From: Octopus vulgaris
Lineage: Eukaryota
NCBI GenBank assembly: GCA_951406725.2
Contig: OX597814.1
Coordinates: 223,448,001-223,512,000, forward strand
Reading direction: 5' to 3'
Length of the DNA: 64,000 bases
The notes under the pieces are model-generated. The model did not search any database and was not told the DNA's origin. It was given only the letters and a program-made list of their open reading frames with translations. Both the position numbers and the translations under genes were made by a program. Each line of letters begins with the position of its first letter. Within the stretch, counting starts at the first letter, position 1. This document shows positions 4,961 to 61,668 of the stretch, piece by piece.

Positions 4961-5692
4961 ATGTATATAGGTATGTACATAAGCATGTATGTACGTAAGT
5001 ACATATGTATGTATGTATGTGTGTATGTATGTATGTATGAATGTGTGTATGTATGTATTTATGTATGTTTGTAGGTAGGCAGGTAAGCAGGTAGATTATC
5101 ATATCTGTATGAATATATGCACACGCGTATGTATGTATTTATCTAAGTGTGTATGTATGCTTGCATATGCGTATGCACGTATGTGTATGTGTATGTTAGT
5201 GTGAGTGCACGGCAGAGTGTTTATAGCATTGTAATCAAGGTCGTAAATATAAGCCTTTCGAAAAACTTACCCGCAACCGTGAATAAAGCGGACGGACTTA
5301 TAACAATGTAAGCAAAGAATCACTTTCATATATATGTGTGTATCTCAATTAATTTCCGTATGTGTGTGTGTGGGAGGGCACGTATGTGTGCATGTGTACG
5401 TGCTTGTCTGTGTAAGTGTGTGTGTGTGAGTGTGTGTGTGTGTGTGCGCGCGCGCGTGCATGGGGCACGTGTGTATGTGTATTCAGTTAAAATGTGAAAT
5501 ATCACAAGCTTAAAAATATTAACAGAATATGAGGCCGATAACTAGCGTATAGTCAGATATACCAAATACATTTATTGTCTGTAACTTCGAGGTTTCTCCG
5601 ATTGTATGGCGTATACAAGCTAAGAATCAATTCGGCAAAACTTCGAAGTCACATCAAAATAGCAGATATGTATGCGAGTGTGTATTTCTATA

Positions 5693-6097
5693 GGCGCAGG
5701 AGTGGCTGTGTGGTAAGTAGCTTGCTTACCAACCACATGGTTCCGGGTTCAGTTCCACTGCGTGGCACCTTGGGCAAGTGTCTTCTGCTATAGCCTTGGG
5801 CCGACCAAAGCCTTGTGAGTGGATTTGGTAGACGGAAACTGAAAGAAGCCCGTCGTATATATGTATATATATATGCGTGTGTGTGTTTGTGTGTCCGTGT
5901 TTGTCCCCCTAGCATTGCTTGACAACCGATGCTGGTGTGTTTATGTCCCCGTTACTTAGCGGTTCGGCAAAAGAAACCGATAGAATGAGTACTGGGCTTA
6001 CAAAAGAATAAGTCCCGGGGTCGAGTTGCTCGATTAAAGGCGGTGCTCCAGCATGGCTGCAGTCAAATGACTAAAACAAGTAAAAGAGTAAAAGAGT
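5693..6097 (+). mobile_element. Full-length tRNA-derived SINE (family A)
   Basis: A-box-like TGGCTGTGTGG, B-box-like GGTTCAGTTCC, internal (TA)/(TG) tract and AAAAGAGT-repeat tail. Highly similar copy at 53201-53625 on the minus strand. Confidence 0.85.
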
Positions 6098-27940: not shown

Positions 27941-28082
27941 TGTTGTCGCACGTTCGGCTGACCTCTACTCAACTTCACTCTCGACTCTAGTCTACCACTG
28001 CTACTCCTCACGTCTAGACTTCTCCCTCTATATCTACGTATTGGGCTAGTCTACTTCATCGTCTGGGGGCGTCCACACAACA
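27941..28082 (-). mobile_element. Solo LTR (142 bp) with 5-bp target-site duplication
   Basis: Termini TGTTGT...ACAACA; flanks AACTT at 27936-27940 and 28083-28087. Same family as the arms at 60789-61038, where a PBS defines the orientation. Confidence 0.85.
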
Positions 28083-45734: not shown

Positions 45735-46092
45735 TTTATTTGTTTCAGTCATTTGATTGCGACCATGCCGGAGCACCGCTGTTGGTCAAATAAATCGACC
45801 CGAGGACTTATTCTTTGTAAGCCTAGTACTTATTCCATCGGTAACCACACCAACATTGGTGTCAAGCGATGGTGGGGGGACAACACACAAGATACATAGA
45901 TACATACATACATGCATATATATATATTTACAACGGGATTTTTTCAGTTTCTGTATACCAAATCCACTCACAAGACTTTGGTCGGTTCGAGGCTACAGTA
46001 GAACAGACTTGGCCAAGGTGCCATGCAGTGGCAGCGAACCCGGAACTATGTGGTTGGGAAGCAAGCTTTTTACCACATGGCCATTCCAGCGC
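45735..46092 (-). mobile_element. SINE family A, diverged near-full-length copy
   Basis: Colinear with the reverse complement of 5693-6097. Confidence 0.8.
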
Positions 46093-46124
46093 ATACACAC
46101 ACGCGCGCGCGCACACACACATAT

Positions 46125-53200: not shown

Positions 53201-53424
53201 TCTTTACACTTTACTCTTTTACTTGTTTCAGTCATTTGACTGCGGCCATGCTGGAGCACCGCCTTTAATCGAGCAACTCGACCCCAGGACTTATTCTTTT
53301 GTAAGCCCAGTACTTATTCTATCGGTCTCTTTTGCCGAACCGCTAAGTAACGGGGACATAAACACACCAGCATCGGTTGTCAAGTAATGCTAGGGGGACA
53401 AACACAGACACACAAACACACACA

Positions 53425-53463
<39 letters not shown>

Positions 53464-53625
53464 GACGAGCTTCTTTCAGTTTCCGTCTACCAAATTCACT
53501 CACAAGGCTTTGGTCGGCCCGAGGCTATAGTAGAAGACACTTGCCCAAGGTACCACGCAGTGGGACTGAACCCGGAACCATGTGGTTGGTAAACAAGCTA
53601 CTTACCACACAGCCACTCCTGCGCC
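53201..53625 (-). mobile_element. Young full-length SINE family A with 12-bp TSD
   Basis: TATACTGTTTAC at 53189-53200 and 53626-53637; highly similar to 5693-6097. Confidence 0.9.
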
Positions 53626-53666
53626 TATACTGTTTACGCTTTTTCCTTTATTACTGAGATCTTATA

Positions 53667-59008: not shown

Positions 59009-60788
59009 ACCTTCTAGTCGTAGAAAGTGCCTATTATCTCACGACAACAAAACGGAGAGATATTTTCCAAAGCTTACGTCTTGGAAATTCTTTAGCAAAT
59101 TATTGTGCAACTTTACGGCGCCAATTAGTAGTAACAAATACTGAGATAAACTTCTATTTTGTCAATTTCGTATGCAAATTGCTTGAGGGACTAATTAATG
59201 CTGCCTTGTTTCTTTATTATACAGATGCTGCACTCATACTTGAAAACCAAATTTCATACATACAGGCATATACCAACTTCTTTATACACACACACACATA
59301 CATACACACGTATACAAATAAAGAGGGACACATATTCTGTATTCGCATACATATATCTACACGCACACTCTCACACACACACGCATATAGCTTTGTTCCT
59401 GTGTTGGTCCTATAAATGGATGTACTTATACTAAACATAAGCAATGCTAATTACATTCTTAAGAAATTTTAATGATTGCAGCTAATTTAGCTGAAACTTA
59501 ATTATATGTATTTGCTTTCAATATCTTTGCATGCAAATACGCTGGAAGACTGCAGCTAGCTTCCGCAGTTGATTTATGCACGAGCTTCGGTAGTGTATTC
59601 AATATATATCGATTATCTTTACTCTGTGTTCTTTATGCTTCTGTCTTCCTCCTGCTTCTAACTTACTCCCTTGTATTAATGAGAATATATTATGTTTTTT
59701 CTTTAACATTTGATTTTGACCCGAAACACGTTGAATTCCTTTGCAAGTTATTCATATTTTAAAAAGCCATGTCATTCCATATTCCCAATAGCGGTAGCAC
59801 GAAGTCTTCCAACATATATATTCCCGTGCACAATATGAATTATTTTCTGCATTCGGAAGAAAAACAATCCTTGCAAATAATACACACAAAAATGTATTTA
59901 CAATCACTTTGTTATTAACAAATAGCAATTTACGGAAGATGTTTGTACGGAGCATGTATCATTAAGAATTTATTAACGTGACGTGTATTTGACTGATTAT
60001 GACGATTATAACCATTATTAGTTTATTGTTAAATAATATATATTATTAACTCTTTTTTAGTGCGACGAGGTGCAAATATATACACTTAAAGTAGATGTTT
60101 TTGTTGTTGTTACTATTGATGTAGTTATTATTATTACTGTTGTTGCTGTTTTTAATATAGTCAAGTTCGATTGAACAAATCCATTAGCAGAATAATTCCA
60201 GCTGCATTTATCCTTTCTATTCAAGAGCCTTCAGGACCAGATGTATTTTCTCCAGTAAGGTATAATTTTAGGGGATTTTGGCTACTATTTGGATTTCGTT
60301 GCAGATGTTATGCAACAAGAGAAATTACAGCTTTGAACTATTGTCCAATTTATCCCTTCTTGCTTTCGTCTTTTTTCCAGAACCGACGTAGCAGATGTCA
60401 CAATACGTTTATTTATGCATATTTCTATGTATGTGTGTATACATGATATTACACGCACACGCACGCACACACACACAAACACATACACACACTCATACAC
60501 AGTATGCTAATCTTCTAGAAAACATATAACTTTATTGCATTCTAAAAGGTATTTGGGAACGCTTCTAGAAACTTCCATGGGAAGTTATACAAGCCTAGTA
60601 TTTTTTCAATTTTAGTTAGTGGATAGCGTGCCTTCCAGAAGCTATACCACTCACTCTCAAATACACTTGTTGTATTTTAACGTTCTTGCTATAATGATAC
60701 AAGACGTTACTTTCCTCCACAATGACCTTTATTAATAAATTTAATGCTTTCGCTACTTTAGTTTCAATGAAAGAAATAGGTAATTTAA

Positions 60789-61038
60789 TGATGTGTCGAC
60801 GCCCCCAAACGATGAAGTAGGCTAGCCCAATACGTAGATATAGAGGGAGAAGTCTAGACGTCGAGGGGTGAGTGGAGGTCATCCGAACCTGCGATATAAC
60901 AGTGGCGACGAGGATGAGATCCACTGTTATATCGCACGTTCGGATGACCTCTACTCAACTCCTCAACATCTAGACTTCTCCCTCTATATCTACGTATTGG
61001 GCTAGCCTACTTCAGCGTCTGGGGGCGTCTGCACAACA
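60789..61038. mobile_element. Palindromic LTR-PBS-inverted-LTR unit with a single 5-bp TSD
   Basis: LTR 60789-60901, G, PBS 60903-60920, CCAC, inverted LTR 60925-61038; TTTAA at 60784-60788 and 61039-61043. Confidence 0.85.
60903..60920 (+). promoter_or_regulatory. Primer-binding site complementary to a tRNA-Ser(GCT)-type 3' end
   Basis: TGGCGACGAGGATGAGAT lies 1 nt after an LTR ending in CA. It is 17/18 identical to the complement of the metazoan tRNA-Ser(GCT) 3' end as I recall it (TGGCGACGAGGATGGGAT). Confidence 0.75.
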
Positions 61039-61668
61039 TTTAATTCTTGTCATTTCTTTGCTAGATAAACTCTTAGACAAAAATTAAGAACTAACTTCCT
61101 GCTATTCGTATGTTTTCTCGCGGCTTTATTGACAAAGGGAGATTACTCCGGTTTATTTATATTTAATTGTAATTAAACGTATCAGTAAAATAACGAGAAT
61201 CAAATGAAACTATCTTCGAAATTGATCTTTTTACATTTCTCCACAAAAATTTATTTGACAATTCTTGTCATTCTACCAACAGCAGGTAGTAAAAGAAATT
61301 AGTTTAATTGAAAGACACATACATGTCACACAACATATTCGGTCAACTTAATTGTATTCATATCTCATGGATACATCATTAAAGCAGAGAATATATATGA
61401 AGACAACAAAATAGATGCCGAATGACATAACAAAATATGTCGATGTAAGCGCGTATTAATTGGGGTTTTTTTTATTTTTTGTTTTATCGTGTCCTATTCG
61501 TGTGTCTCTTCTCTTCGTCTGCCACAAATTGCCATATGTTCTCATAATGTCATATGTCATTCGTTGTACAGTAACTTATATTGCCCTTATCGTATCCTCC
61601 TTCAATCCCTCACTCTCATACACACACACACATTTTCTTTCGCTCTCTTAACCTCTCTCTTTCTCTTA

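Follow-up and report, generated by a model that had tools for sequence, protein, structure and literature searches.

Anatomy of the palindrome

The window, by which we mean the whole 64,000-nucleotide stretch of octopus DNA analysed here, contains a palindrome of two LTRs at positions 60784-61043. It opens with one copy of a target-site duplication (TSD), TTTAA (60784..60788, plus strand), which is single in four empty paralogues. The left arm (60789..60901, plus strand) is a complete short LTR of 113 nt, TG...CA, of a Ty3/Gypsy family, with its U3 end facing outward. The same LTR also flanks gag-RT-RNaseH-IN elements that have a polypurine tract (PPT). Between this LTR and the primer binding site (PBS) lies a 1-nt spacer, G (60902..60902, plus strand), and the parent element has the same. 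The next 18 nt (60903..60920, plus strand) reproduce positions 76-59 of the mature host tRNA-Ser(GCT), its 3' end, and the last five of them are not in the parent's PBS. The CCA-C that follows (60921..60924, minus strand) is the spacer G and the first three PBS bases in inverted form. Its CCA equals the terminal CCA of the tRNA, and sister loci have versions of 3, 2 and 1 nt; it is likely a remnant left by RNase H. The right arm (60925..61038, minus strand) is a complete inverted LTR of 114 nt, again with the U3 end outward and with no PPT beyond it, and a second TTTAA (61039..61043, plus strand) closes the unit. The insert is ~250 bp long and its centre (G + 18 nt + CCA + C, 60902-60924) takes up 23 nt. 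The original prediction described this arrangement from TTTAA to TTTAA, with arms ~90% identical and neither PPT nor internal region. At the sequence level all of this is confirmed; 103 of 113 aligned arm bases match, with one gap. Folded as a single strand, the palindrome forms one hairpin whose loop is 15 nt long (z = -25 relative to 200 shuffles).

Both arms were also said to share a ~30-nt gap relative to a solo LTR of the same family at 27941..28082 (minus strand, 142 nt, TSD AACTT), which has a longer variable region. The arms do lack 31 nt, but this is not a private shared deletion, since the LTR stretch is hypervariable and the short form is also found in parent-linked LTRs (L324, L330, L078). 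LTR lengths in the family sample range from 93 to 185 nt. A purine-rich stretch midway along the LTR differs in nearly every copy (e.g. L068-L097 and L312-L341), and in some cases also within one element, from one LTR to the other. Imprecise first strand transfer is perhaps the source of this variability. Elsewhere in the window a dispersed repeat lies in inverted orientation at 5669-6092, 45891-46117 and 53210-53629, with up to 97% identity over 237 nt. The output of a window-wide repeat search was dominated by microsatellites.

Target site and empty sites

The palindrome sits in a low-copy host repeat that spans at least 60600..61250 (strand not assigned). Paralogues of this repeat are ~69-88% identical and free of the insert. 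In 4 of the 16 paralogues examined (L293, L295, L303 and L305) a single TTTAA stands at the join, which is what an empty site should look like. Most of the others also cross the site with no insert, but they have diverged there. The TSD flanks the whole unit, so the arms do not each have a TSD of their own. Two independent insertions and a local inversion are both ruled out by the TSDs together with the empty sites. The TG...CA ends, the 5-bp TSD and the single target copy at the empty site are all features of integrase insertion. They support the predicted insertion, as one unit, of a strong-stop product with two U3 ends.

The right arm and its flank are present in contigs of three other organisms, with 3-5 differences in 331-436 bases. 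Contigs with the empty-site joint turn up in all four runs. One of them has an identity of ~85% to the window, and we take it to be the paralogue rather than an orthologous empty allele. Among the loci fetched, no empty site was found for 16 other palindromic loci.

The primer tRNA

The 18-mer was predicted to match a host tRNA, and it matches tRNA-Ser(GCT) at 18 of 18 bases (15 encoded bases plus CCA). ARAGORN calls tRNA-Ser(GCT) in 11 of the 11 loci scanned. When a pattern of PBS plus T-loop was searched, 36 of 36 matches carried the element's variant. The base after the match is the A that follows TTCG, which we take to be position 58 in standard numbering. The copy thus ends one base before A58. 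This is also where retroviral plus-strand synthesis stops, one base before m1A58 (PMC8599865). Matches to the 3' end of tRNA-Ser(GCT) are clustered at two places in the genome, G000:C3:70854305-70896769 (14 matches) and C7:103873505-103889734 (6 matches). The loci scanned in the C3 cluster are tRNA-Ser genes.

The parent element

The LTR-retrotransposon parent that the prediction called for was found, and it is a Ty3/Gypsy element. In one copy (L151) direct LTRs occupy 209-321 and 5332-5444, the 3' LTR is preceded by a purine tract, and the TSD reads ATTAT. Open stretches in L151, L153, L154 and L155 match DUF7083, RVT_1, RT_RNaseH and Integrase_H2C2/rve. In L151 and L153 DUF7083, which is the gag region, precedes the other three in the Ty3/Gypsy order. 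The closest solved integrases to the parent's are those of foamy virus and Ty3. Within Gypsy its placement may be Mag-like. None of the 11 candidate-parent regions fetched first held a coding element of the family, and the parent copies examined are broken. The parent family is old and apparently dead.

The start of gag has 85 matches, and 30 gag-linked 5' ends were examined. The PBS of these 30 copies pairs with the tRNA for 11-13 nt, and none of the 30 has an 18-nt PBS. Bases 14-18 of the centre are therefore copied from the tRNA and not from element RNA. The CCAC could have been the parent's ordinary continuation after the PBS, but that candidate is excluded since none of the 30 gag-linked copies has it.

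The 5' leader of the parent is itself repetitive. In the copies inspected (L151-L155 and L262-L291) there are 0-3 copies of a 56-nt unit, then the final PBS and gag. Each unit is a 13-nt PBS, a spacer and an 11-nt copy of the U5 end. This implies that priming can start at several sites, every one of which comes with an integrase end. At G000:C3:44313367-44319453 (L143, L157) one LTR is followed by ~105 tandem 56-nt PBS units with the TSD CTTAC; this array is a satellite grown from the PBS unit. Shorter arrays of the unit are found at C3:85545799, C3:125747853 and C1:160246270. A related LTR family (L110/L126, L127, L214) has the same start to its leader spacer and several PBS units in a row.

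Palindromes across the genome

The host genome (G000, 2.8 Gb) was searched in two ways. The whole element has at least 88 matches, with the best 40 of 1410 candidates scored. An 83-nt junction query, for which the best 40 of 283 candidates were scored, finds at least 19 places that span the junction, and then single-arm matches only. Two of these (L018 and L019) share flanks and must be one duplicated insertion, so there are 18 insertions, and this count is a lower bound. TSDs are exact in 14, match at 4 of 5 bases in 2, and are absent or cannot be scored in 2. The last two are L002, where the right flank resembles another repeat, and L015, where one end is truncated. All 16 TSDs differ from one another. 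The original prediction expected a search with the junction to give many copies with distinct 5-bp TSDs, and this is what was found.

Fourteen of the 18 insertions have a near-identical junction. At its start the right arm reads CCA in 14, CA in 1 and A in 2; these remnants of the tRNA end are 3, 2 and 1 nt long. One locus (L023) has an 8-nt centre and no loop. Arms within a locus have diverged by 6.7-14%, which makes the insertions old, and there are no young copies. TSD base composition in 14 palindromes and 21 other products shows some difference at the centre position, in numbers too few to weigh.

A junction pattern that tolerates two mismatches was used for other families. It gave 117 matches against 16 in the control, and the 16 matches with 0-1 mismatch are the known loci. 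Among the 101 two-mismatch matches, none of the 34 that were checked has inverted arms. Only one case outside the family therefore stands (L036, G000:C2:185900958). It belongs to a second LTR family, and the same centre of 23 nt lies there between U5 ends in inverted orientation. Its inverted arm continues into PPT-like and 3' internal sequence. It is old, and no TSD was scored.

One founder or repeated formation

For the case of many copies, the prediction suggested a MITE-shaped non-autonomous element. It is worth asking whether the copies descend from one palindrome. Arms were compared at 14 loci with both arms intact; L015, L018, L023, L231 and L233 are broken or duplicates and were excluded. 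The difference between arms is 10.0% within loci and 11.4% between loci (permutation p = 0.001). Without CpG columns the values are 7.3% and 8.1% (p = 0.02). Rare shared states average 1.43 within loci against 0.18 between loci (p = 0.001). This signal is modest, and without L019 it falls to p = 0.016-0.07 depending on the threshold. Private variants common to both arms are seen at L009, L016 and L019, and length types at L008 and L011. There are at least five arm types in which both arms are concordant, and such types recur in non-palindromic LTRs. The commonest is also found in parent-linked LTRs (L078, L324).

A single founder should leave columns that tell left arms from right arms, but only one column is skewed in this way and it is a CpG. 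A maximum likelihood tree that also includes 14 ordinary LTRs requires 13 changes of the palindrome label, compared with 11.8 for shuffled labels, and the palindromes form no clade in it. The tree is mostly unresolved, with 4 of 39 branches strong; the arms of L016 pair strongly, as do those of L019. Several LTR variants with concordant arms, no clade and no left/right markers are what repeated de novo formation would give, and as far as the arm sequences go we favour that reading. The multi-copy MITE of the prediction is not supported by this evidence. It must be noted that 9 of the 14 loci in the alignment have one LTR start type in common. Of ~64 loci with that start 7 are palindromes, against very roughly 1-2% of all family LTRs. 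Given this enrichment a burst or some secondary copying may also have contributed. The palindrome is likely a recurrent by-product of copying and not an element that spreads itself.

Other products with a tRNA copy

The 18-mer pattern has 66 matches in the genome against 1 in a control, and all 66 were read. From the U5 end upstream, 44 of them were assigned to the family by eye, and the counts are minimum figures. The remaining 22 belong to other LTR families or are chance matches and were left out. Beyond base 18 the 44 family loci go separate ways. Inverted LTR follows in 9 (8 insertions), leader spacer in 28 (in several registers), the pol/3' region in 3, U5 in 2, an inverted leader unit in 1, and sequence from elsewhere in 1. 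Divergence immediately after base 18 to so many landing sites implies that base 18 behaves as a free 3' end.

The 28 LTR-PBS18-spacer copies have an exact TSD in 18 cases, a TSD with 4 of 5 bases matching in 6, and none or an unscorable one in 4. The sequence continues into gag in none of the 28 but in 5 of the 21 copies whose PBS is 13 nt long (Fisher p = 0.011). The simplest reading is that the PBS18-spacer copies are short duplexes that were inserted directly. One locus went further along the tRNA (L205, G000:C11:89173142). It has copied 49 bases of tRNA-Ser, through A58 to the anticodon loop, and the copy is identical to the gene L107 over 46 encoded bases. It then jumps through ~10 nt of homology into the 3' region of the parent. 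The result is a two-LTR mini-element with an exact TSD.

Three further loci were noted. L209 (G000:C13:12931039) has U5-type ends on both sides, with inverted leader units back to back, and by eye a 5-bp repeat, GTAGC, on both flanks. L202 (G000:C11:13717156) passes from PBS18 into an inverted leader unit that starts at CA and then into forward units, with an exact TSD. In L232 (G000:C3:37317839) an LTR-unit meets part of an inverted LTR, and a clear TSD is lacking.

A proposed route to the palindrome

The left arm and its tail have the features of plus-strand strong-stop DNA, an LTR plus 18 nt complementary to the primer tRNA in which the terminal bases are tRNA-derived. We argue that a plus-strand strong-stop DNA, once displaced, became linked by its end to the end of another strong-stop DNA, and that integrase inserted the resulting duplex with two U3 ends. 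We put the probability of this at about 0.65. In this scenario a plus strand primed from the PPT would copy the LTR, the G and 18 nt of the tRNA and halt at m1A58. It would then be unable to transfer in the normal way, because its last five nucleotides mismatch the parent's leader. RNase H would trim the tRNA and leave 3, 2 or 1 nt of it. A second plus strand, primed again from the same tract, would displace the first and end in G-TGG, G-TG or G-T, as in the PPT-recycling scheme of Ty3. The 3' end of the first strand would then jump with no homology onto the 3' end of the second and copy it up to the start of U3. Extension of the second strand back across the first would complete a duplex with two U3 ends, and both arms would derive from one template. 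Integrase would use the two CA-3' ends and leave a 5-bp TSD, and assembly would take place in the element's particle. Every copy would go back to an accident of its own on a single template molecule, and the product itself would not replicate.

Parts of this have a precedent in yeast. In Ty3 the PPT primes repeatedly, and the plus strand made first includes a copy of part of the tRNA and is then displaced as a dead-end product (PMC5371799). RNase H cuts there at or near the tRNA junction, and a second plus strand made on the same template ends at U5 and is displaced (PMC5371799). The palindrome calls for just such a pair of free plus strands with exact U3 starts. Ty1 integrase accepts any fragment that ends in TG...CA, and a dead-end Ty1 intermediate was found joined to the end of a foreign DNA (PMC2939329). 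The weak point is the jump. It has no homology to guide it, since the primer ends in AT and the template continues with CG, and the literature searched contained no report of a Gypsy reverse transcriptase making such a homology-free end-to-end jump. End joining by host repair would give an identical sequence.

The prediction had strong-stop DNA of the plus strand joined to the start of the minus strand. The strong-stop product is supported, but a minus-strand partner fits less well. A covalent join of that kind would continue into the PPT, and 0 of 18 insertions do, so a short plus-strand template fits the family better. The junction of L036 runs on into the PPT, which means the partner strand can be long.

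One can imagine a related route in which the strong-stop LTR joins tail to tail with the U5 end of a full-length cDNA, the dimer is inserted, and its inner part is later lost by recombination between LTRs. L036 speaks for it, since another LTR family there has the same centre and an inverted arm followed by PPT-like and internal sequence. Nor is the missing PPT in all 18 palindromes decisive, because a PPT precedes only 4 of 60 sampled family LTR matches. However, not one of the 18 insertions retains any internal part, and two-LTR mini-elements (L199, L205) have survived unrecombined. In the variable region the arms of one palindrome are also alike, while several longer copies (L151, L205) have two LTRs that are not the same in that region. 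We consider this long route unlikely. Other rivals are a chromosomal event after insertion, be it a fold-back duplication, an inversion or two adjacent independent insertions, and an artefact of assembly. DNA that forms hairpins rearranges easily and easily gives fold-back artefacts. In 16 of the 18 insertions, however, the whole unit lies between direct 5-bp repeats, and there are clean empty sites; the TSD series essentially refutes such events. They would also have to account for five tRNA-only bases that the parent lacks, for arms that differ by 10%, and for contigs of three other organisms that hold the right arm and flank.

Finally, one or a few founder palindromes could have spread as a MITE-like family, either at the DNA level by an integrase-like transposase of the Ginger/Tdd type or by RNA copying. 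A near-identical junction in 14 of 18 insertions and the shared LTR start type at 9 of 14 loci are in line with this, and the ends are TGTNR-like, as those of Ginger elements are (PMC2836005). The TSD of animal Ginger is 4 bp (PMC2836005). This reading was already weakened by the lack of a clade in a poorly resolved tree, by a sole left/right-diagnostic column that is a CpG, and by concordant arm types that recur in ordinary LTRs. The remnant also varies between 3, 2 and 1 nt, and no copy is young. With no PPT, an RNA copy presumably could not regenerate a precise U3 end. We regard spread from a founder as improbable, and the join of two strong-stop DNAs is the reading we prefer.

Wider implications

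A more general claim can be made with some hesitation, and we would bet slightly against it. It is that this Gypsy element routinely inserted duplexes made of strong-stop DNA only, which would include the palindromes, the LTR-plus-leader copies and the piece with two U5 ends. Many solo LTRs would then be direct insertions, and an LTR would become a terminal-inverted-repeat (TIR) unit in one step. If true, a sizeable share of the family's solo LTRs were never full-length, and ratios of solo to intact elements overstate the DNA loss that is due to recombination. To make such a TIR-type, integrase-competent unit out of an LTR would then take nothing but reverse transcription, and the unit would be a ready seed for MITE- or Ginger-like elements. 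The genome would also record where primer modifications stop synthesis, at position 58 and at one position in the anticodon loop.

That solo LTRs come from recombination only is an old assumption, and the sister products make it testable. An 18-nt as opposed to a 13-nt PBS is a built-in marker of the two routes, and it can be used in any genome with a Gypsy PBS shorter than 18 nt. Annotation would file LTR-derived inserts of the palindrome class as a MITE or as two solo LTRs. The scale is limited to ~20 copies, and nothing suggests a host function for the palindromes.

Comparison with known systems

We found no earlier description of an LTR-tRNA copy-inverted LTR form in the literature searched, which covered few subscription papers or Repbase-type catalogues. 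A familiar object to compare with is the solo LTR, which is also an LTR-only insert with TG...CA ends and a 5-bp TSD. The palindrome is different in having two inverted LTRs and a tRNA-derived centre, so recombination between the direct LTRs of a normal element cannot yield it.

TRIMs have an internal region that includes a PPT. Their LTRs are direct, whereas the palindrome has its LTRs inverted, lacks a PPT and gives no sign of propagating itself. TRIMs and tandemly arrayed TRIMs too are short, non-coding and LTR-derived, with a PBS and a 5-bp TSD (PMC4717578). Several copies with different TSDs are another trait of TRIMs that the palindrome shows. One maize locus has two inverted TRIMs inside one TSD, and this is the nearest structural report we found (PMC4717578).

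MITEs of the Ginger/Tdd type resemble the palindrome, with a size of ~250 bp, long terminal inverted repeats with a TSD, and TGTNR-like ends (PMC2836005). However, the "TIRs" of the palindrome are whole Gypsy LTRs and its spacer is a copy of a tRNA. The TSD of animal Ginger1/2 is given as 4 bp (PMC2836005), whereas that of the palindrome is 5 bp, as is the parent's. The element found with the palindrome's ends is a Gypsy, and no clonal amplification was seen in a tree that is poorly resolved.

The best comparison is with the dead-end strong-stop DNA of yeast Ty3 and Ty1. There too the genomic PBS is shorter than the stretch of tRNA that is copied, which makes the first strong-stop a dead end (PMC5371799). 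The Ty1 composite insertion MK44 likewise has the end of a dead-end strong-stop DNA joined to another DNA end (PMC2939329). In contrast to these, the octopus DNA stops at 18 nt and not at 12, the partner is a second LTR copy, and the insertions are natural ones in the germ line of an animal, where the copy is sometimes inherited. The yeast scheme of repeated plus-strand priming and dead ends comes from the laboratory. The octopus loci look like its fossils in an animal germ line, in which both the stop and the primer remnant can be read base by base.
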